Under the pieces are notes generated by a model. That model had not been told where the DNA came from, did not search any database, and saw only the letters and a program-made list of their open reading frames with translations. Shown piece after piece: positions 2,320 through 20,486 of a stretch of 32,000 nucleotides of DNA. Origin of the DNA: Synechococcus elongatus PCC 6301 (GTDB taxonomy: Bacteria > Cyanobacteriota > Cyanobacteriia > Synechococcales > Synechococcaceae); assembly GCF_000010065.1 (NCBI RefSeq), contig NC_006576.1, positions 540,001-572,000 of the forward strand, given 5' to 3'. Position 1 is the first letter of the stretch; each line of letters opens with the position of its first letter. Position numbers and translations under genes: made by a program.

Positions 2320-5300
2320 CTAGGCGGCTTGCGATCGCAGTTCTTCGTAGAGGCCGGTTTGGTTGAGCAGGATGTTTTTGATGCCGTCCTGTACCTGCTT
2401 AGAGTTGAGGGCTTGGCTACTCATGGATTGGTGAGCGTCGAGGGCGCTGATGATCGCTTCGAGCAGTTCTTGGGCAAAGTCGGGGGAGCTCGCAAATTGC
2501 TCTTTACTGTTGGCGATCGCTTGCTGACGCAGGGTGGGGGATTCGAGGAGTTTGCTGCGGAGGACAACGCTGACGTAGTTGACCTTGTCCGCGTCGGTGA
2601 GATCGCCTGTGAATAGTTCGTTCAGTTTGACGATCAGGGCTGAGAGCCAGACTTTCTCTTGGTCTTGGACAACACCTTTGCCGGGTTGGAGGCCGGGGAC
2701 GGGGATGGCTTCGCCCTGTTGGAGATCGAGGCGGCGATCGCCTTGGTGGCGGACTTGGTAGTGAGTCAGGACAACTTTGGAGAGGTCGATGCTGCCGACT
2801 TCGCGCTCAAATTCCAGCAACGGGATCAGGCGACGGAAGACGATCGCGCGTTTTTCGTAAGCGGTGTTGCCGTAGTCGAAGATTTGCGAGAGGAAGGTGT
2901 AAAGACGGACGTAGGTGCCTAGGTCGCTGCGGAACAGGGTGAGGGCGGCGAGTTCGTCTTGGGCGGTTTTGAGGGCGGCAGGGTCGTTTTGGGCTTCGGC
3001 GGTGCGGGCGGCTTGGCGAGCGTTGCGGTATTGATACAGCAAGCGTTCGGCGATCGGTTCTAGGGCTTTTTGCAGATCACTTTGTTTGGCGTTGGGGTTG
3101 AGGACAACTTTGACAACGCGATCGATTTCGTATGCGTCGTAATGCTTCTGAGCATCGAGCTTGAGCCGCAGATCCAAGATCAGGTTGGGATCGGTGGCGC
3201 TGGCGAGTTCAGCGGTGGTGTAGTAGGTCTTGAAGGCGGCCAGAATCTCAGCGGGATCGTTGCTGAAATCGACAATATAAGTGGTGTCTTTGCCGGGATG
3301 GCAGCGGTTGAGGCGCGATAGAGTTTGCACGGCTTGGATGCCCGCAAGACGCCGATCGATGTACATGCCACAGAGCAAGGGTTGGTCGAAGCCGGTTTGG
3401 AATTTGTTGGCGACGATCAGGATTTGGTAGCGATCGCTTTTGAAGGTTTCGCGGATGTCGCCTTGTAAGTTGGGGTTGAGGTTGGGGCTGGTTTCAGTGA
3501 ACGGGTCGGGGCCAGAATCGCGATCGCGGACTTCGCCACTAAAGGCAACAAGGGTGCCGAGACGGTACTGTTTTGCTGCAATGTAGCGATCGATCGCTAG
3601 TTTCCAGCGCACGGCTTCTTTGCGGGAACCGACCACGACCATCGCTTTGGCTTTGCCATTCAGCAGTGGCGCGACGTATTGCTGAAAATGCTCAACCACG
3701 ATCGCGACTTTCTGGGCGATGTTGTGGGGATGCAGCTTGACCCAGCCCATCAGCTTTTTGAGGGCAGCGTTGCGCTCCACTTCTTGATCGCTAAACTGCT
3801 GGCCTGCTTGGGCAAGGCGGAAGGCGACTTTGTAGCTGGTGTAGTTTTGCAGAACATCGAGGATGAAGCCTTCCTCGATCGCTTGCCGCATTGAATAGAC
3901 GTGGAAGGGCATGGGCAGATTATCAGGGCCAGCCGGTCGGTTGGGATCGGGACGTCTGCCGAATAATTCCAGCGTTTTGGCTTTGGGTGTGGCGGTAAAA
4001 GCAACGTAGGTGATGCCGCTTTCGCGGGCACGATCGCTCATTTGGGCCGCAAGGACGGCTTCGAGATCCACTTCGCCGCCGTCGTTGAGATCGGCGAGTT
4101 CGGCAGGAGAAAGCAGTTGTTTGAGTTTGCTGGCGGCTTCGCCGGTTTGAGAACTGTGGGCTTCGTCGGCAATGACAGCAAAGCGTTTACCTTCGGTGGC
4201 GGCCAGTTCGCGTACGGCTTGCAGAGCGAAGGGAAAGGTCTGAATCGTGCAGACAACAATTTTCTTATCGCCCTTGAGGGCTTCGGCAAGTTTGCTGCTT
4301 TTGCTGCCGTCGTCGCGGGTGATGGCAGCAACCACGCCTTTGTGCCGCTCGAAACTTTCGATCGCTTCTTGCAGTTGCGTATCAATGACGTTGCGATCGC
4401 TAACAACGATCACGGAATCGAAGACTTTGCGGTTATCGGCGTCGTGGAGTTCACTAAAGAAATGCGCTGTCCAAGCGATCGAATTGGTTTTGCCAGAACC
4501 GGCGGAATGCTGCACTAAATACTTGTGGCCAGCCCCTTCTTGCAGGACCGCCTCTTGCAGTCGCCGCGTCACGATCAGTTGGTGATAGCGCGGGAAGAGC
4601 AGGCGGGTGATTTGCTGTTTCTTGTTGCGCTCGGTGATGCAATAGCGCCCCAGAATTTCCAGCCAGCTATCGCGTTGCCACACCTCTTGCCAGAGATAAG
4701 CGGTGCGGTGACCACTAGCAGAGCTGACAGGATTCCCCGCGCCACAATCGGGCGCACCTGGATCACTGCCTTGGTTAAAGGGTAGGAAAACAGTAGCAAA
4801 GCCCGCCAGCTTGGTGGTCATTTGCACTTCGCGATTACTGACGGCGAAATGCACGATCGCGCCACTCGGGAAACTCAGCAACGGTTCTGGCGATTGTCCG
4901 GCGGGTTTGGGGTTGCGATCTTGTTTGTATTGATAAACGGCGTCGGCGATGTTTTGGGTGTTATCGGTTTTGAGTTCGACGGTGGCGACGGGAATGCCAT
5001 TCAGGAACAGAACGAGATCAATACAGTTTTGATTGTGGAGGGAATAGCGCACTTGCCGAATGACGCGCAGCCGATTGGCTTCGTAGCGATCGCGAATTTC
5101 GGCATTAGTAGCAAAGGCGGGTTTGAATTGCGCCAGCTTCAGCGATCGCGGCAGTCCGAGGACTTCGAGGCCATAGCGCAACAGATCGAGGGTGCCGACT
5201 TGATCGAGTTGTTGCCGGACTCGTTGCAACAGAATCGCTTCGGCTTGAGTGCCTTGTTTTTGTTGCAGAGTTTCCCAAGCTTCCGGTTGGGTTTGTTGGA

Positions 5301-5439
5301 GCCAAGCAAACAGATCGGGTGGATAAAGCGCTAAAGCGCGATCGTAGTCAGCGGCTGCGCCTTCCTCATAAATCCAGCCTTGCTGGGCGAGGTCTTGGCA
5401 AATTTCTGCTTCAAAAGCACTTTCTAAATGCACAGTCAT
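2320..5439 (-). CDS. hsdR: Type I restriction enzyme, R (endonuclease/translocase) subunit
   Basis: 1039 aa. N-terminal PD-(D/E)XK nuclease motif (IDLVLFLNGIPVATVELK). SF2 helicase motifs: Walker A SAGSGKTNS and DEAH box IADEAHSSQ. Long C-terminal helical region typical of HsdR. The start codon overlaps the hsdS stop in ATGA (5436-5439), implying translational coupling. Confidence 0.95.
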   Translation of the reverse strand: MTVHLESAFEAEICQDLAQQGWIYEEGAAADYDRALALYPPDLFAWLQQTQPEAWETLQQKQGTQAEAILLQRVRQQLDQVGTLDLLRYGLEVLGLPRSLKLAQFKPAFATNAEIRDRYEANRLRVIRQVRYSLHNQNCIDLVLFLNGIPVATVELKTDNTQNIADAVYQYKQDRNPKPAGQSPEPLLSFPSGAIVHFAVSNREVQMTTKLAGFATVFLPFNQGSDPGAPDCGAGNPVSSASGHRTAYLWQEVWQRDSWLEILGRYCITERNKKQQITRLLFPRYHQLIVTRRLQEAVLQEGAGHKYLVQHSAGSGKTNSIAWTAHFFSELHDADNRKVFDSVIVVSDRNVIDTQLQEAIESFERHKGVVAAITRDDGSKSSKLAEALKGDKKIVVCTIQTFPFALQAVRELAATEGKRFAVIADEAHSSQTGEAASKLKQLLSPAELADLNDGGEVDLEAVLAAQMSDRARESGITYVAFTATPKAKTLELFGRRPDPNRPAGPDNLPMPFHVYSMRQAIEEGFILDVLQNYTSYKVAFRLAQAGQQFSDQEVERNAALKKLMGWVKLHPHNIAQKVAIVVEHFQQYVAPLLNGKAKAMVVVGSRKEAVRWKLAIDRYIAAKQYRLGTLVAFSGEVRDRDSGPDPFTETSPNLNPNLQGDIRETFKSDRYQILIVANKFQTGFDQPLLCGMYIDRRLAGIQAVQTLSRLNRCHPGKDTTYIVDFSNDPAEILAAFKTYYTTAELASATDPNLILDLRLKLDAQKHYDAYEIDRVVKVVLNPNAKQSDLQKALEPIAERLLYQYRNARQAARTAEAQNDPAALKTAQDELAALTLFRSDLGTYVRLYTFLSQIFDYGNTAYEKRAIVFRRLIPLLEFEREVGSIDLSKVVLTHYQVRHQGDRRLDLQQGEAIPVPGLQPGKGVVQDQEKVWLSALIVKLNELFTGDLTDADKVNYVSVVLRSKLLESPTLRQQAIANSKEQFASSPDFAQELLEAIISALDAHQSMSSQALNSKQVQDGIKNILLNQTGLYEELRSQAA

Positions 5440-6797
5440 GCGGCCACCTCCGCCAAGCCCCGCACGTCAATTTGTCCGGTCACTGCCGCCGAAATTAATG
5501 CCGATCGCCGCTCTTGCAAAAGAGAAAGAGACTTTGTTGATTCATTCTCAAGTGATGTGATCTCTTCTAGTTGAGAATGAATGTGTTTGACAATTAGAAT
5601 CTGTTCATCTAGTGGAGGCAAAGCAAAAACTGTATCTCGCACAAGCTCTTGGCTAATATTGCCGGCTTTACGAGCACTAACAGCTCGCTCCATCCAAAAA
5701 GGTCTAAGGAACTGAATATATCTAAATGTAAACATTGGAACGGCATAATATGAGGGTAAAAGAGCACATAGCGCTTGATTTATAGCAGCAGGGAAAGTAA
5801 GAATTCCATTTTTTCCTACGGTTCCACCTCCGCCATACAAAGCAACTAGAACAGTATCCACTGGCAAGATTTCACAAGCAGTATCTTGAATAGCTTGATT
5901 TGTGATAGATACTTCAGCAGATCTTACTTCTTGATTTTCGATATCTGTTGTTCTTACCCAAGGAATACCTGAGTCAGAGTCAGCATAATAAAGAGCTTGC
6001 TCTTCAGTATTAGGTGTCCCGCCACTAGAAGTTTTGAAGTAATGCTTAATCTTTCCTGTTTTCCAATGGGCGGGGACTTGGCCGAGCCACTCAATGCCCG
6101 AATCTTTCAGCGGCGCATCGGGGTTGAGTCCTTTGGTGACTGCGTGGGAAATGACCGCTTGGCGTTTTTCTTGCAGCAGCGCAATCAGACGTTGTTGTTC
6201 TGCGATCAGTGCATCAATTTTTGCCGTTTCGCGATCGAGAAAAGATGCGATCGCTATTTGTTCTTCATCACTAGGTACTGGGAGAATAAATGACAAAAAA
6301 TTATCTTGACTAAGGTTTTGCATACTGGAAGAGGTTCCAGAGCAAACCATTTTTACCTGATCTCTATAAATTTGTGTCTGTGTCCAATAGTAAGCAAAGT
6401 TTGGATAGACATTGCTAATTCTTACTTGCCATAAGCGATCAGGCAGAAAAACACAGTCATAATCAACCAAGCTTAAACCAGCAGCACCTACTAAATCAGG
6501 TGTATTCATCCTGCTAACAATAAGTCTTCCAGATTTAACAGGACAAGCAGCTCGGTCAATATCTTCTTGAATAATTTCTTTCCTTTCCTCTGGACGGAAA
6601 GAACCTGTGTAGACACAGCTAGTTTTAAGTACAGATGGAATTCCTTCGTCTGGAGCATGATCAAGAGCATTAACACTGACTCCAGACTCTATTTCTGGTA
6701 TTAGTCGCCGTAGTTGTAATACATTCCAGTGAGAAGGAAGTTTTTCAAGCCATTCAATACCGCAATCTTTGTAAGCCGGATATCGAGGAAAACTCAT
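5436..6797 (-). CDS. hsdS: Type I restriction-modification specificity (S) subunit
   Basis: Two target-recognition domains are separated by a central coiled-coil conserved region (IAIASFLDRETAKIDALIAEQQRLIALLQEKRQAVISHAVTKGL). A matching C-terminal conserved region follows (LLQERRSALISAAVTGQIDVRG). The ORF track starts at a TTG (6827). I prefer the ATG at 6797 (MSFPRYPAYK...), which has GGAGA 9 nt upstream. Confidence 0.9.
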   Translation of the reverse strand: MSFPRYPAYKDCGIEWLEKLPSHWNVLQLRRLIPEIESGVSVNALDHAPDEGIPSVLKTSCVYTGSFRPEERKEIIQEDIDRAACPVKSGRLIVSRMNTPDLVGAAGLSLVDYDCVFLPDRLWQVRISNVYPNFAYYWTQTQIYRDQVKMVCSGTSSSMQNLSQDNFLSFILPVPSDEEQIAIASFLDRETAKIDALIAEQQRLIALLQEKRQAVISHAVTKGLNPDAPLKDSGIEWLGQVPAHWKTGKIKHYFKTSSGGTPNTEEQALYYADSDSGIPWVRTTDIENQEVRSAEVSITNQAIQDTACEILPVDTVLVALYGGGGTVGKNGILTFPAAINQALCALLPSYYAVPMFTFRYIQFLRPFWMERAVSARKAGNISQELVRDTVFALPPLDEQILIVKHIHSQLEEITSLENESTKSLSLLQERRSALISAAVTGQIDVRGLAEVAA

Positions 6798-7061
6798 TCC
6801 AAACTGTCTCCAGCCCAACGCCGTCAATCACAACCACCTCTCTCTGCACACTACAGATTGAAGTCTTGTCCTAGCTTAGCCCTCGCATCCCCGCAGCACC
6901 AAAACCCACAGCGCGATCGGCCTACTTCCCAGCCGCACCAAACAACATTCCCAGCAACTTCCGGCGGCGCTTCCGTCGTTGTCCCTGTTCCGTACTAGAT
7001 TGCGGCGGATCCAGCTTCGTCTGGCTCATCCCTAACCCCCTCCAAACCGCGATCGGGCCAC

Positions 7062-7310
7062 TTACTGCTGATTCAGCCAATCTTCTAAATCTTGAACATC
7101 GGCAAAATCCAACAACGCCTCACATAGATCTTCTAGTTGCTCAAGAGATAGGGCTTGAACTTGCTCCAGTAACTCTGGTGACAGCACCCCACATCGCTTT
7201 GGTAGCAAACGAAGAACAAAAGCCGTTGCCACCTCTAGCCGGCCTTCTTGAAAACCCTGTGCAAAGCCTTCTTTCCGAGCAATGCGTTCAACGCTGGTGA
7301 TGTAAGGCAT
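7062..7310 (-). CDS. Stand-alone DUF4351-like small protein (module A, 82 aa), paralogue of the C-terminal domain of the adjacent Rpn-family nuclease
   Basis: ATG preceded by AGGAG-N6. The protein starts MPYITSVERIARKEG and ends QALSLEQLEDL..LLDF..VQDLEDWLNQQ. It is colinear with residues 242-311 of the 311-aa ORF at 7591-8526. Confidence 0.7.
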   Translation of the reverse strand: MPYITSVERIARKEGFAQGFQEGRLEVATAFVLRLLPKRCGVLSPELLEQVQALSLEQLEDLCEALLDFADVQDLEDWLNQQ

Positions 7311-7323
7311 CGGTTACTCCTGC

Positions 7324-7551
7324 CTACAACTGCTGATTGAGCCAGTCCTCTAAATCTTGAATGCCAGAGAAATCCAACAAGTCATCTGCTAGATTCTCCA
7401 TCTGTTCGAGCGATAGGGCTTGTATCTGCGTCAGCAAAGCAGGTGAGAGCGTGCCACAACGTCGGGTAAGCTGCCGGAGAACTAAAGTATCAGCTTGTTC
7501 CCTCCGGCCTTCCTGTCTGCCAATGCGTTCAATGCTGGTGATGTAAGGCAT
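7324..7551 (-). CDS. Stand-alone DUF4351-like small protein (module B, 75 aa), paralogue of the C-terminal domain of the adjacent Rpn-family nuclease
   Basis: The ORF track starts at a GTG (7581). The ATG at 7551 is preceded by AGGAG-N6 and gives MPYITSIERIGRQEG...DLEDWLNQQL. The 5' end, plus 28 nt upstream, is 60/61 identical to the internal segment 7771-7831 of the upstream nuclease gene. Confidence 0.7.
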   Translation of the reverse strand: MPYITSIERIGRQEGRREQADTLVLRQLTRRCGTLSPALLTQIQALSLEQMENLADDLLDFSGIQDLEDWLNQQL

Positions 7552-7590
7552 CCGGCGCTCCTGCTCATAAGCCGACAGCACTTTCCTCCG

Positions 7591-8526
7591 CTACTGCTGA
7601 CTCAGCCACACCTCCAGATCATCAATCGTTGAGAAATCAAATAATGCTTCTCCCAGTGCTTCCATCTGCTCGATAGACAGCGCTTGTACTTGCGCTAAAA
7701 GACTTGAGGACAGAGTTCCATAGCGCTTCGTCAGTAAACGAAGAACAAAAATCTTCGCTTCCTCCCGCCGGCCAATGCGTTCAATGCTGGTGATGTAAGG
7801 CATTCGGCGCTCCTGCTCATAAGCCGACAGCTCACTCCTGAACTCTAGCTCAAGACCTTCGGGAAGGCTCAAGAGCCAGTCAATGAACTTGAAAAGGCCA
7901 ATAATGCGCTCTCGACTCAGGCCCCGCTCATACAAAAGTTTCAACAACTCCAGCTTCCATCGCTTGCGCAGTTGCCGATCTTGCTTCGTCTGAATCGCCC
8001 GTAAATGCGCAGCCACCGCGATCGCAAACGGATTCTCATCCTCCAAGAGTTGATCAAGGCGATCGAGATAATCCAGCAACTTAACGCTGACAAACTCACT
8101 GAGATCACGACTGCCCCAAAGCGCTGTCTCAAAAGCATTGGGTCGCCACGTCGGTGACTCATCCGCCAAAATCGCCACACTCGCGATCGGCACCGCAAAG
8201 CGATCGAAGATGCGATAGCGATAGACATACATCCGCTCCGCAAAGTTCGATTCCCTCGCGCCCTGCACCTCAATGTGTACCAGCACCCACGCTTCTTGAC
8301 CGGCTTTCGTCCAAACCTTAACGAGCTTGTCCGCATAACGTCGGCCAGTCTCCGCCTCGGCTGTAATCTGCTGGAGCTCCTTATCCAGAAACTCATAGCC
8401 GCGATCCCAATCAATGTCGGGATCCGCGATCGGCAAAAAGAAGCGAATGAACTCTGGGAAGAAAGCCTCAATTAACTCCTTCCACGGTGAATCGCTCTCG
8501 GTAAGGGGCAGCGCAGAATCGGTCAT
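7591..8526 (-). CDS. Rpn/YhgA-like PD-(D/E)XK recombination-promoting nuclease / putative transposase, with a C-terminal DUF4351-like module
   Basis: 311 aa with an ATG start. The N-terminal region has the Rpn/YhgA-type nuclease core signature (YADKLVKVW...AWVLVHIEVQG, i.e. D...hhhE.Q). The C-terminal 70 aa (MPYITSIERIGRRE...DLEVWLSQQ) form the module that is repeated twice downstream. Confidence 0.75.
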   Translation of the reverse strand: MTDSALPLTESDSPWKELIEAFFPEFIRFFLPIADPDIDWDRGYEFLDKELQQITAEAETGRRYADKLVKVWTKAGQEAWVLVHIEVQGARESNFAERMYVYRYRIFDRFAVPIASVAILADESPTWRPNAFETALWGSRDLSEFVSVKLLDYLDRLDQLLEDENPFAIAVAAHLRAIQTKQDRQLRKRWKLELLKLLYERGLSRERIIGLFKFIDWLLSLPEGLELEFRSELSAYEQERRMPYITSIERIGRREEAKIFVLRLLTKRYGTLSSSLLAQVQALSIEQMEALGEALFDFSTIDDLEVWLSQQ

Positions 8527-8529
8527 GCT

Positions 8530-8730
8530 TCATTCCTTGCGATCGCTCCAATAGCGGTCATCTTCCAACTCCTTACCTGAGAGCATCCGCAGCTCCCCAT
8601 CAATCACAACGGAAAGCCCAGTCCCTGTTTGTCGTGCCAATTCCCGTGCTCGCTGTGCCGCCCGCAATAAAGCAGGCATTACTTTTTGCATATCTGAATC
8701 ATGATCTTGAGATTGCGACTCTTGGGTCAT
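8530..8730 (-). CDS. Small hypothetical protein (66 aa), tightly coupled to the Rpn-like gene
   Basis: ATG preceded by GAGGAAG. Its stop is 3 nt from the Rpn ATG, and AAGGAA lies inside its 3' end. Acidic N- and C-termini flank a central Ala/Arg-rich helix (ALLRAAQRARELARQTGTGLSVVIDG). No family recognised. Confidence 0.5.
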   Translation of the reverse strand: MTQESQSQDHDSDMQKVMPALLRAAQRARELARQTGTGLSVVIDGELRMLSGKELEDDRYWSDRKE

Positions 8731-8751: not shown

Positions 8752-10779
8752 TTAGTGAGATAAGCCCCCGAGCATTGTCAGAATGCGATCGGTGACTTGC
8801 TGTAACTCCGCATCAATTTCCTCCAGCGATCGCGGTGGCGTAAACACATAAAAATGCCGGTTAAAGGGAATCTCGTAACCGACTTTGGTTTTCTCTGGGT
8901 CGATCCAAGCATCCGGCACATGCGGCAACACTTCTCGCTGGAAATAGGTGTCTACATCCTCAGTTAGCGGCACATTCTCGGTATCCCGTAAGCTGGCATC
9001 CGCCACAGGCTGCCCCTTAGTCTTGCCCCGCTGCGCCAGTACGACATTCCCCGCCTCATCTCGCTGCGGACGCTCCACTGTAATCGTGCGATAGCCAAAC
9101 TCTTCATTGCGAAAGATTTTGCTAACGGGTTTCCCATCGCGATCGGCTTCCTCAAAGTTGCCGAACAACCGCGTAATCTCCGCAATCTGCTCCTCGCTCA
9201 GTTCCTTGCGCTTACTGCCCAAACTCTTGCGCATCTTCTGCCAAAAACCACTGGCATCAATTAGCTGAACTTTGCCTTTGCGGCTTGCAGGCTTCCGGTT
9301 ACTCAGAATCCAGATATAGGTGCTGATACCTGTGTTGTAGAACATGTCCGTGGGCAAAGCGATAATCGCCTCGACCAGATCGTTTTCAAGGACATAGCGG
9401 CGAATCTCGCTCTCGCCAGACCCAGCCCCGCCGGTAAATAACGGTGATCCATTCAGCACAATCCCCAGACGGCTGCCGCCTTCACTAGCAGGTCGCATCT
9501 TCGAGATCAGATGCAGGAGAAAGAGCAACGAGCCATCACTGACGCGAGGTAAGCCAGGACCAAAACGACCGCTGTAGCCCAACTGTTCAGCTTCTCGCTG
9601 GACTTCCTTCTGAATCTTTTTCCACTCGACGCCGAAGGGAGGATTCGACAGCATGTAGTCGTACTTGGCATCGGGCAACTTGTCATCGGAGAGCGTGTTG
9701 CCAAAGCAAATATTCTGGATGTTTTGTCCCTTGATCAGCATGTCGGCTTTGCAGATCGCATAGGACTCTGGGTTCAATTCCTGCCCCGACAGCACCAATC
9801 GCGCCGAAGGATTCAGCTCCGTTAGATGTTCCTCGGCCACACTGAGCATGCCGCCCGTGCCTGCAGTGGGGTCATACAGACTGCGGACAATTCCAGGCTG
9901 AGTCAGCGCGGCATCATCCTCAATAAAGAGCAAATTGACCATCAGCCGAATCACTTCGCGGGGCGTGAAGTGTTCCCCAGCCGTTTCATTCGAGAGTTCG
10001 GCAAATTTGCGAATCAGCTCCTCAAATACCAAACCCATCTCGGCATTGCTAACCGTATCGGGATGGAGGTCGATCTGCGCAAAGCGTTCAGTGACAAGGT
10101 AAAGCAGACCCGCTTTTTCGAGGCGATCGATTTGTAGATGAAACTCAAAGCTATCGAAAATGTCCCGCACTGCTGGCGTGAAGCCTTGGATATAAGCACG
10201 CAGGTTCTCGCCAATGTTGTCGGCATCACCCATCAGCTGCTTGAGATCGAGCGGTGAGGTATTGCAGAAGTTCTGCCCTGCTTTCTTCAGCAAGAACGGT
10301 TCTGGAGCTAAGCCTTGGCTTTCGCGTAGGACTTTCTCTTCAAGAACAGCGGCTTTCGTCGGGGCAAGCACACAGTCCAAGCGCCGCAGCACCGTAAACG
10401 GCAGGATGATTTTGCCGTAGTCACTCTGTTTGTAGTCGCCGCGCAGCAGGTCAGCCACACTCCAAATGAAGGCCGAGAGATTCTGGCGTCCAGTCGGTTG
10501 CGGTTCTAGAGGAGCGGCCATTGGGAGGTCTGGTGGCGTAGCGATCGCAATTCCCTGACTATCCATCAACGTCACAGACCCGCCGCGTCCCCGTCCTGAT
10601 TGAATCCGGCCTTGCAGCATCAGTTCTGCTTTGACCGACTCGTAGCGAGCATCATCCCACGCCAACAACTGTTGCAGCTTGCTATTCCCCGCTGAGCCAC
10701 CGAGGGCTTGAAGCACCCCGAGGAACTCAGCTTGAAGACTGCTGATTTCGGTCGTTGATTGGGAGGATTCAAACGTCAT
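8752..10779 (-). CDS. hsdM: Type I restriction-modification DNA methyltransferase (M) subunit, with a roughly 100-aa N-terminal extension
   Basis: HsdM_N-like segment ([35 protein letters not shown]). AdoMet motif [10 protein letters not shown] and catalytic motif NPPFG. The ORF track extends to 10911, but that extension begins in the terminator T-tract of the upstream gene. I use the ATG at 10779 (MTFESSQ..., 675 aa). Confidence 0.92.
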
Positions 10780-15666: not shown

Positions 15667-16158
15667 CTAGCTGAGGGCATTGATGAGGTAGTCGATGTAG
15701 GAGTTGGCTTCATCGCGAGAGTCACCACTCAAGCCATGATTCGCTTTGATGTACTTCAGCGCTTCCACATACCAGCTCGGCGCCAAGTCGAAGGTCTTGT
15801 TGATCTCATCAAGACCTGCCAACAGGTACTCATCAATCGGACCCGTGCCACCCGCAACCAATGCATAGGTCACAATCCGCAGATAGTAACCAATGTCACG
15901 CGCACACTTCGCTTTGCCTTCCGGCGTCGATGCAAAGTTGTTGCCAGGCGTGCTGGTGGTGTAGGGGAACTTGCTGTAAACAGCGTTCGCTGCACCGTTG
16001 ACCAAGCTGTCAGCATTGTTTGCCAACGCCTTAGCCGCTGCCAAACCAGAAGCAGCTTGACGGAAACGACCAAATGCAACTTGCAGTTCAGTGCTGCTCA
16101 GAAAACGCCCTTGCGAATCAGCAGCAGCGACAGCTTCGGTCAGAGGAGTCTTGGACAT
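15667..16158 (-). CDS. cpcA2: C-phycocyanin alpha subunit (copy 2)
   Basis: 163 aa, unmistakably phycocyanin alpha ([21 protein letters not shown]...[11 protein letters not shown]...). It differs from copy 1 at one residue (T23 versus A23). Confidence 0.97.
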
Positions 16159-16209
16159 GATTCCCTATTTCTCTGAAAAAAGGTCTGTTATCTCAATCCC
16201 AGTCGATGA

Positions 16210-16731
16210 CTAGGCAACTGCAGCAGCAGCTTTGTCGAAGTAGCTGCCCAGCTCGGAAATGATCGCTGAACAGTCACCTTGGGTGATGCCGTTGCGGTCG
16301 CTCACAATCGCCACAGCTGCGTCTTTCATCTTGCGAACGCCTTCTGCCACCGATGCACCGGGCACGCCCAGAGCCAAGTAGGTCTCACGCAGACCGTTCA
16401 AACAGCGGTCGTCGAGAATGGAAGCATCGCCGGTGAAGACCGCGTAGGTCACGTAGCGGAGAATGATTTCCATGTCGCGCAGACAAGCCGCCATCCGACG
16501 GTTCGTGTATGCGTTGCCGCCAGGAGCAATCAGAGAAGGTTGCTCTGCAAACAATGCACGCGCTGCGTTAGCGACGATCGACGAAGCATTACCGGTGATG
16601 CGGTTGACCGTATCAATCCGTTTGTTGCCTTCTGCAACCAAGCGGCTCAGCGCGTCCAGTTGGGCGTCGCTCAAAAATTCGCCACGGGCATCGGCTTGTG
16701 CCACCACCTTGGTGAAAGCATCAAAAGTCAT
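16210..16731 (-). CDS. cpcB2: C-phycocyanin beta subunit (copy 2)
   Basis: 173 aa, phycocyanin beta ([21 protein letters not shown]...[19 protein letters not shown]...). It differs from copy 1 at one residue (A74 versus V74). Confidence 0.97.
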
Positions 16732-19421: not shown

Positions 19422-19913
19422 CTAGCTGAGGGCATTGATGAGGTAGTCGATGTAGGAGTTGGCTTCATCGCGAGAGTCACCACTCAAGCCATGATTCGCT
19501 TTGATGTACTTCAGCGCTTCCACATACCAGCTCGGCGCCAAGTCGAAGGTCTTGTTGATCTCATCAAGACCTGCCAACAGGTACTCATCAATCGGACCCG
19601 TGCCACCCGCAACCAATGCATAGGTCACAATCCGCAGATAGTAACCAATGTCACGCGCACACTTCGCTTTGCCTTCCGGCGTCGATGCAAAGTTGTTGCC
19701 AGGCGTGCTGGTGGTGTAGGGGAACTTGCTGTAAACAGCGTTCGCTGCACCGTTGACCAAGCTGTCAGCATTGTTTGCCAACGCCTTAGCCGCTGCCAAA
19801 CCAGAAGCAGCTTGACGGAAACGACCAAATGCAACTTGCAGTTCAGCGCTGCTCAGAAAACGCCCTTGCGAATCAGCAGCAGCGACAGCTTCGGTCAGAG
19901 GAGTCTTGGACAT
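19422..19913 (-). CDS. cpcA1: C-phycocyanin alpha subunit (copy 1)
   Basis: 163 aa, identical to copy 2 except A23. Confidence 0.97.
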
Positions 19914-19964
19914 GATTCCCTATTTCTCTGAAAAAAGGTCTGTTATCTCAATCCCAGTCGATGA

Positions 19965-20486
19965 CTAGGCAACTGCAGCAGCAGCTTTGTCGAAGTAGCT
20001 GCCCAGCTCGGAAATGATCGCTGAACAGTCACCTTGGGTGATGCCGTTGCGGTCGCTCACAATCGCCACAGCTGCGTCTTTCATCTTGCGAACGCCTTCT
20101 GCCACCGATGCACCGGGCACGCCCAGAGCCAAGTAGGTCTCACGCAGACCGTTCAAACAGCGGTCGTCGAGAATGGAAGCATCGCCGGTGAAGACCGCGT
20201 AGGTCACGTAGCGGAGAATGATTTCCATGTCGCGCAGACAAGCCGCCATCCGACGGTTCGTGTATACGTTGCCGCCAGGAGCAATCAGAGAAGGTTGCTC
20301 TGCAAACAATGCACGCGCTGCGTTAGCGACGATCGACGAAGCATTACCGGTGATGCGGTTGACCGTATCAATCCGTTTGTTGCCTTCTGCAACCAAGCGG
20401 CTCAGCGCGTCCAGTTGGGCGTCGCTCAAAAATTCGCCACGGGCATCGGCTTGTGCCACCACCTTGGTGAAAGCATCAAAAGTCAT
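19965..20486 (-). CDS. cpcB1: C-phycocyanin beta subunit (copy 1)
   Basis: 173 aa, identical to copy 2 except V74. Confidence 0.97.

Follow-up and report, generated by a model that had tools for sequence, protein, structure and literature searches.

Does the rpn-like gene of Synechococcus elongatus carry a second gene within its own reading frame? The question is raised by a stretch of 32,000 nucleotides (nt) from S. elongatus PCC 6301 (NC_006576.1, positions 540,001 to 572,000 of the forward strand), the whole of which is called the window below, with positions counted from its first letter. On its minus strand lies an open reading frame (ORF) for a protein of 311 amino acids (aa), which is an exact match to the product of CP000100 1072278..1073213 in S. 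elongatus PCC 7942 (Synpcc7942_1061; window positions w and CP000100 positions c are related by c = 1,080,804 - w). From the sequence and by analogy with Escherichia coli, we consider it likely that Synpcc7942_1061 encodes a divergent nuclease of the Rpn superfamily (YhgA-like, of the PD-(D/E)XK type), and that it is a gene-within-gene in which the internal gene specifies a small protein restraining the nuclease.

An initial annotation of this DNA had pointed to an in-frame ATG at codon 242, preceded by a Shine-Dalgarno (SD) sequence, and all its coordinates and sequences were right: Met242 is encoded by ATG 7803..7801, and AGGAG is located at 7814..7810 with a spacer of 6 nt (CGCCGA). Initiation at 7803 would yield a 70-aa protein (MPYITSIERIGRRE...EVWLSQQ), identical to the C-terminal domain (CTD) of the 311-aa protein. 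The same layout had been described for two free-standing modules further downstream (ATG 7551 and ATG 7310), and AGGAG-N6-ATG is indeed present at both, at 7562..7549 for module 2 and at 7321..7308 for module 3. The predicted duplex of the internal SD sequence with the anti-SD sequence (-6.6 kcal/mol) is stronger than that at the gene's own start (-5.2 kcal/mol), and also stronger than those at most annotated starts in the window. The exact AGGAG-N6-ATG pattern occurs three times in the 32 kb, solely at the three module starts, where 1.09 occurrences are expected; three or more matches were found in 9/100 shuffles, and an anti-SD match as good (-6.6 kcal/mol) is found at approximately 6.6% of positions on the minus strand. 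The junctions at modules 1 and 2 form a direct repeat of 61 nt (7831..7771 and 7579..7519), which is 60/61 identical and has an exact stretch of 33 nt common to both copies, with the module bodies being approximately 65-70% identical. Because this duplicated junction includes nine codons upstream of the Met, the ribosome binding site (RBS) contexts of modules 1 and 2 are not independent, and the conserved RBS context that had been proposed is, within the window, largely one duplicated junction.

Across homologues the same proposal is strongly supported, both by the Met/GTG start and by the codon bias at the SD sequence. A database search gave 2610 relatives with E <= 1e-5, and those with a source name were nearly all cyanobacterial and named 'DUF4351 domain-containing protein'; the subfamily is mostly cyanobacterial, with Acidobacteriota, Desulfobacterota and Chloroflexota also represented. 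In a protein alignment of the best 120 relatives plus the query (121 sequences), the residue at the Met242 position is Met in 116/121, Val in 4/121 and a gap in 1/121. For analysis at the DNA level 80 genomic loci were fetched and 74 full-length homologous genes were read, of which 68 have ATG and six have GTG as the boundary codon. All six Val codons are thus GTG, compared with only 42/113 of the Val codons elsewhere in these six genes. At codons -5 to -3, Glu is encoded by GAG 134 times and by GAA 29 times (698/1657 in the rest of the 74 genes), and Gln by CAG 43 times and never by CAA (500/1256 in the rest). As a control for kinship, the 74 genes were collapsed to 34 clusters at 80% nt identity, after which the GAG/GAA ratio was 61/18 vs 390/658 (Fisher p 6e-12) and the CAG/CAA ratio 9/0 vs 286/469 (p 2e-4), while the third positions of the codons neighbouring the SD codons vary freely. 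At 95% of the internal start sites the predicted anti-SD duplex is at least as strong as -6 kcal/mol, vs 10% of control positions within the genes. This is nucleotide-level selection that maintains a purine-rich GGAG at constant spacing from the start codon, and for which the amino acid sequence alone is an insufficient explanation. The internal start signal appears clearly non-random only once the homologues are included, and the idea survived the search for family members lacking a Met or SD sequence at this boundary, with Met or GTG-encoded Val in 120/121 sequences and the selection for GAG and CAG at the SD position.

The predicted product of the internal start coincides with a protein domain, as the in-gene module matches Pfam DUF4351 (PF14261) with 81.7 bits and the free modules with 86.4 and 84.7 bits, vs a gathering score of 25 bits (E 4e-23 to 1e-24; 3.9e-23 for the in-gene module). 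Among 23 aligned DUF4351 small proteins (a set that includes the three window modules), 18 start exactly at MPY[IV]TS. Relative to module 1, modules 2 and 3 have insertions of 4 and 12 residues, respectively, which begin at residue 11-13 (GRRE / GRQE-GRRE / ARKE-GFAQ-GFQE-GRLE), which gives helix-1 lengths (counted from the Met to a conserved Gly) of 28, 32 and 40 for modules 1, 2 and 3, i.e. one additional repeat in module 2 and three in module 3 relative to module 1. This four-residue step is a property of the family, with the helix-1 length being 28, 32, 36, 40, 44, 48 or 52 (28 + 4n) in 130/143 modules. In the structural model of the CTD (predicted local distance difference test score, pLDDT, 77) a long first helix is followed by three short helices.

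These features have a precedent in the E. coli RpnL/RpnS toxin-antitoxin genes-within-genes (rpnA-E and rpnP2; Zhong et al. PNAS 2023, PMC10400941), where rpnA has a validated internal start at M244 with the RBS at K240/E241, and mutation of K240/E241/M244 abolished production of RpnA_S. The four-residue repeats of RpnS begin 8-20 residues after the initiating Met, extend the first helix, and set the specificity of inhibition between RpnS and RpnL, while free-standing RpnS genes, which carry a DUF4351/PF14261 annotation in some species, arise independently by duplication and can disappear through deletion or by becoming fused to the N-terminal domain (PMC10400941). The initial annotation had drawn the comparison with this E. 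coli system, and the comparison is supported: the DNA at M244 of rpnA reads AAGGAG-N6-ATG, as does that of ypaA, a free copy downstream of rpnE with one repeat more than the in-gene RpnE_S, and the helix in our modules varies in four-residue steps as published for RpnS. In contrast, its view that a DUF4351-type CTD sets the cyanobacterial protein apart has to be abandoned, as free-standing RpnS had already been linked to DUF4351 by Zhong et al. (2023). The E. coli RpnA, RpnE and YpaA proteins gave no DUF4351 match in Pfam. The arrangement is an unannotated example of the known Rpn design with free-standing RpnS copies, and not a new mechanism.

With regard to the N-terminal part of the protein, we examined 64 close homologues (48-93% identity), of which 36 match the TIGR01784 'Rpn family' model (best E 2.4e-11) and 24 match PF04754; TIGR01784 aligns end to end with the close homologues, and likewise with RpnA and RpnE. 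All of these 64 homologues retain D66 and Q88, at least 90% of them retain E86, and hhalign places D66/E86/Q88 on RpnA D63/E82/Q84 (YADKL...HIEVQ vs YSDVL...LIEHQ), albeit in a weak match (E 0.076). The top Foldseek matches in the Protein Data Bank (PDB) are PD-(D/E)XK nucleases, all with E > 0.03. An AlphaFold model of the 311-aa protein, based on the 64 sequences, has an overall pLDDT of 88, which drops to 60-69 at residues 241-260, spanning the internal Met and separating the confidently modelled nuclease/helical body from a likewise confident helical CTD.

Published RNA sequencing (RNA-seq) data for PCC 7942 show that the locus is transcribed, with mean coverage (in reads/nt) of 1.8 for hsdM, 7.1 for Synpcc7942_1061, 17.6 for Synpcc7942_1062 (module 2), 10.9 for Synpcc7942_1063 (module 3), 7.2 for hsdS and 3.6 for hsdR. 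Synpcc7942_1061 has a transcript of its own, with the 5' end at c1072232 (46 nt upstream, w8572) and the 3' end at c1073241, and a second transcript was called from c1073253 (the module 2 ATG) through hsdR. An RNA polymerase peak in chromatin immunoprecipitation (ChIP) data (no. 880, p 8e-6; Vijayan et al. 2011, Table S3) is located inside Synpcc7942_1061 at c1072553-1072660 (w8144..8251), approximately 400 nt upstream of the internal start, and could represent an internal promoter or a pause; E. coli rpn genes do have internal promoters. The RNA-seq and ChIP data are compatible with translation from the internal start, and go no further than that.

A nuclease restrained by its own internal product is the likely reading, and the following results weigh against it. 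Taken from the window alone, the evidence is weak and the SD sequence statistically uncompelling. The window protein scores 17 bits with PF04754 (Transposase_31/YhgA-like), below the 21-bit cut-off, and gave no match in an NCBIfam search; the TIGR01784 scores of the homologues, where shown, are 16-33 bits vs a cut-off of 52 bits; and no PADLOC 2023 model matches any protein of the locus. The CTD model has four helices, not three as in RpnA_S, phmmer and hmmsearch against the PDB gave no match, and Foldseek against the PDB did not recover the RpnA_S structure 7TH0 and gave no significant match for the CTD. Comparison by hhalign was null for RpnA_S, and with YpaA the probability was no higher than 42% (E 2.7e-4), for the region of the repeats and helix 1. 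A scan for the sigma-70 consensus upstream of the internal start found no promoter, the RNA-seq 5'-end method used for the published transcriptome is unable to place starts inside ORFs, and a search for a data set of translation initiation site profiling or N-terminal proteomics for S. elongatus found none. By the curated cut-offs the window protein falls outside Rpn (COG5464/TIGR01784/PF04754), and is a remote relative or a member of a sister subfamily; we nevertheless think it probable, by analogy, that the subfamily of Synpcc7942_1061 works like Rpn even though it lies outside the curated models.

In a rival reading of the same internal start, the nuclease would need the small protein as a subunit or regulator (for instance one that sets its oligomeric state or choice of target), and not as its antidote. 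The conservation described above argues for initiation only and not for inhibition, the DUF4351 CTD is unmatched to RpnA_S by sequence or fold, and Zhong et al. cite the intragenic product of Cas10d/Cas11d, which has a complementary role (PMC10400941). However, the modules here do have a helix quantised by four residues, the feature through which RpnS was found in experiments to inhibit RpnL, and the family and TIGR01784 are collinear from end to end. We consider a subunit role improbable.

On the likely reading that the small protein is an antidote, ribosomes starting at ATG 8526 would produce the 311-aa RpnL-like nuclease, and those starting at the internal AGGAG-N6-ATG (7814..7801) the 70-aa RpnS-like DUF4351 protein. 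As in E. coli Rpn, the long helix 1 of the small protein would pair with its counterpart in the full-length protein, the nuclease in this pair would be held inactive until infection, and the number of four-residue repeats in helix 1 would decide which small protein fits which nuclease. Use of the internal start in S. elongatus, toxicity of the nuclease, its inhibition by the small protein, and a role in phage defence may all be expected on this analogy.

The free-standing modules were compared between S. elongatus strains. Two other complete genomes (CP033061 and CP168031) have a syntenic hsdM-rpn-modules-hsdS-hsdR locus with an in-gene module and one or two free modules, with AGGAG-N6-ATG preceding every module in the three genomes, and the flanks of the locus being 82-95% identical. 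The helix-1 length of the in-gene module is 28 in PCC 7942 (free modules 32 and 40), 36 in CP033061 (free module 32), and 32 in CP168031 (free modules 36 and 28). The CP033061 free module is 99% identical to window module 2, but follows the sequence context that precedes module 3 in the window. The in-gene CTD of CP033061 corresponds to module 2 with one repeat added. Over their first 33 nt all S. elongatus modules are almost the same, synonymous sites included, with the bodies being 44-74% identical at the protein level. Together these sequences indicate that the modules have apparently been shuffled by recombination at the junction, and modules 2 and 3 are probably displaced copies of the in-gene module, which would have arisen by duplication or by recombination at the conserved junction.

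The near identity of the synonymous sites in the first 33 nt hints at recombination or gene conversion, and also speaks for a reading in which no separate protein is made, and where the purine-rich GAG-CAG-GAG and the Met are kept for the sake of the full-length protein or its mRNA, as an SD-like pause at the domain boundary in aid of co-translational folding or as a recombination site. The position of the site, exactly at the predicted flexible linker, would suit such a role. Neither a pause nor recombination would call for a start codon with a constant spacing of 6 nt, and the replacement of the Met is always a GTG codon; moreover, the free copies, which are necessarily translated from this signal, retain SD-N6-ATG, and in E. 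coli rpnA this arrangement has been proven to serve as a start. We therefore regard this reading as very improbable. The locus might also be decaying, with a nuclease as inactive as E. coli RpnE and with modules that would be functionless debris of duplication. In favour of this are the annotation of RpnE as 'inactive recombination-promoting nuclease-like protein' and of ypaA as a pseudogene in K-12, and also the free modules, whose repeat numbers do not match that of the in-gene one. Such decay is very improbable for a locus in which all ORFs are intact, D66/E86/Q88 are conserved, the genes are transcribed, and the architecture is retained in three S. elongatus genomes with flanks of 82-95% identity.

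In the loci examined (the S. elongatus strains, loci L045 and L054 of the family, and E. coli rpnE/ypaA) no two modules of one locus have the same number of repeats, the difference between free and in-gene copies being 12 aa (three repeats) in L045 and 4 aa (one repeat) in L054. Given this mismatch and the published specificity rule, the free copies should not inhibit the adjacent nuclease, and the intragenic product would therefore be left as the only cognate antidote. One idea is that the free modules are a small library of 'spare keys' instead of antidotes to the adjacent nuclease, with recombination at the junction swapping the CTD of the nuclease; we consider this unlikely. One recombination event would re-key toxin and antitoxin together, since a single piece of DNA encodes both the CTD and the antidote, which would allow escape from phage-encoded RpnS mimics or from cross-inhibition by paralogues, and co-transcription with hsdS-hsdR might couple the spare modules to the restriction system.

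One apparent strain variant deserves comment. A 316-aa variant (P0001, loci L081-L088), in appearance a 'fusion' gene, lacks exactly 252 bp (7803..7552; one module) and is otherwise 99.97-100% identical to the window. It was rejected as a natural strain deletion and left out of the evidence: all copies of P0001 come from short Logan contigs, and the 311-aa protein is found only in NCBI records and never in Logan. Variation between strains was established with the two complete NCBI genomes described above. The Logan assembly presumably uses 31-mers. Since the 33-nt exact repeat exceeds that length, and given the split between Logan and NCBI, P0001 is probably a de Bruijn-graph collapse across the tandem junction repeat, and as such a warning on protein clusters derived from short-read assemblies.

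The surrounding operon encodes a type I restriction-modification system, with the order on the minus strand being hsdM, a 66-aa ORF, the 311-aa rpn-like gene, modules 2 and 3, hsdS and hsdR (Table 1). A literature search with the locus tags Synpcc7942_1060-1064 gave no match except for Synpcc7942_1064, which is named in a paper on genomic islands and conserved vs variable genes.

Table 1. Features of the rpn-like locus in the window (positions as window coordinates; c, CP000100 coordinate).
Feature	Position	Strand	Description	Basis
rpn-like gene (RpnL-like, Synpcc7942_1061)	7591..8526	-	311 aa; N-terminal PD-(D/E)XK-type and C-terminal DUF4351 domain	ORF list, Pfam
Predicted catalytic motif D66...E86-V-Q88	8263..8331	-	codons 8331..8329, 8271..8269 and 8265..8263	homologue conservation, weak hhalign match
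Internal SD sequence AGGAG	7810..7814	-	within codons Q238 (CAG) and E239 (GAG)	
Module 1, in-gene RpnS-like ORF	7591..7803	-	70 aa from Met242; helix-1 length 28	
Junction repeat copy 1	7771..7831	-	61 nt: nine codons before Met242 including the SD sequence, the ATG, and 30 further nt	
Junction repeat copy 2	7519..7579	-	upstream of, then into, module 2	
Free-standing module 2 (Synpcc7942_1062)	7324..7551	-	75 aa from ATG 7551; SD AGGAG 7562..7558; helix-1 length 32	
Free-standing module 3 (Synpcc7942_1063)	7062..7310	-	82 aa; SD AGGAG 7321..7317; helix-1 length 40	
hsdM (Synpcc7942_1060)	8752..10779	-	annotated start c1070025	Pfam N6_Mtase and HsdM_N
hsdS (Synpcc7942_1064)	5436..6797	-		Pfam Methylase_S, annotation
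hsdR (Synpcc7942_1065)	2320..5439	-		Pfam HSDR_N, ResIII, SWI2_SNF2
Unannotated 66-aa ORF	8530..8730	-	between hsdM and the rpn-like gene	

For module 2 there is an alternative start at GTG 7581 (minus strand), which would give an 85-aa protein and has GGAGG upstream with a spacer of only 3 nt. It is used by newer gene calls, whereas the original annotation of Synpcc7942_1062 (start at c1073253, w7551) and the family alignment favour ATG 7551 and the 75-aa protein. The 265-nt gap between module 3 and hsdS contains a short Arg/Lys-rich ORF (6922..7032, minus strand), which encodes 36 aa from ATG 7032, is preceded by GGAGGGGG, and has no Pfam or PADLOC match. The stop codon of the 66-aa ORF is 3 nt before the ATG of the rpn-like gene, and SD-like GAGAGGAAG is found upstream of this ORF. 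The original annotation of PCC 7942 lacks this ORF, the current NCBI call is a 49-aa version, and the 5' end of the Synpcc7942_1061 transcript (w8572) falls inside it. No Pfam or PADLOC match was found for the 66-aa ORF, and it was rejected as a conserved partner of the nuclease, with no homologue in the 80 family loci and few homologues, in unrelated contexts; one small homologue adjoins a Zeta-toxin-like gene. In CP168031 the 66-aa ORF is absent, and the DUF4351 modules are separated from hsdS by a BrnA-antitoxin-like gene (L100 5763..6092). Small defence or toxin-antitoxin genes seem to collect in the slot that lies between hsdM and hsdS. The hsdS gene itself can be aligned with its counterparts in loci L099 and L100 in only two short blocks (at about w6281..6061 and w5516..5001), and the lengths of HsdS among S. 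elongatus strains are 453, 442 and 445 aa; the remainder is unalignable, as expected if the target-recognition domains have been swapped.

Other S. elongatus strains contain paralogues of 74-75% identity (L092, L093 and L094) on small replicons or contigs of 24-50 kb, one of which is labelled as a plasmid. One of these paralogues adjoins Peptidase_S24 and IMS (UmuD/UmuC-like) genes and a phage-type integrase gene, and another adjoins a large helicase/MZB gene pair. Elsewhere in the window, a pair of ORFs with lengths of 163 aa and 173 aa is found twice, at 15667..16731 and 19422..20486 (minus strand), approximately 3.75 kb apart, which suggests a duplicated two-gene block near HEAT/PBS-lyase genes.

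If the proposed reading is correct, Synpcc7942_1061 of a genetically tractable model cyanobacterium would gain an unannotated intragenic gene, and the gene-within-gene principle of Rpn would extend to a lineage which is sparing in its use of SD sequences. Comparative genomics alone shows that the internal start is under nucleotide-level selection across a large subfamily, and the modules with helices of 28, 32 and 40 residues form a natural specificity panel. The mismatched repeat numbers within one locus are a regularity of their own.

Compared with known systems, the cyanobacterial locus most resembles the E. coli Rpn proteins. It shares with them a nuclease of approximately 300 aa of the predicted PD-(D/E)XK type with D...E.Q, an internal start near residue 242-244 with [A/C]AGGAG-N6-ATG, a small product (predicted in the cyanobacterium) which is the C-terminal helical domain with variable four-residue repeats from approximately 10 residues after the Met, and a patchy distribution of the family beside defence genes. 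Unlike the E. coli proteins, the cyanobacterial protein is remote, scoring below the PF04754 and TIGR01784 cut-offs, and is known here from its sequence; its CTD is of the DUF4351 type, with four predicted helices and approximately 70-82 aa, whereas RpnA_S is a 49-aa three-helix bundle (7TH0) which dimerises by way of helix 1. The free modules resemble the pairs rpnE-ypaA (RpnE_Ss) and rpnC-rpnC_Ss, where the downstream small gene also duplicates the in-gene module, with its own AAGGAG-N6-ATG and a one-repeat difference for rpnE-ypaA, and the published loss of copies by deletion or fusion matches the differences between S. elongatus strains. Here, in contrast, there are two tandem free copies with one and three additional repeats, which are apparently co-transcribed with hsdS-hsdR. 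As with Cas10d/Cas11d of the Synechocystis type I-D CRISPR system, a cyanobacterial defence gene would give rise to a functional protein from an internal start, although Cas11d is a partner of the large protein and not its inhibitor, and the proteins are unrelated.

The position of the gene recalls the prr locus of E. coli, where the gene for the PrrC anticodon nuclease, which cuts tRNA, is located in a type Ic hsd operon and PrrC is masked by the restriction enzyme. A link of the whole family with type I restriction-modification was rejected, as HsdM-, HsdS- or HsdR-like neighbours were found in 0/80 family loci elsewhere, and the association is specific to S. elongatus. What the S. elongatus and prr loci have in common is a latent toxic nuclease gene (predicted, in the case of S. 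elongatus) between the hsd genes of a type I operon, whereas the presumed mask in S. elongatus would be an intragenic small protein, and not the restriction enzyme.

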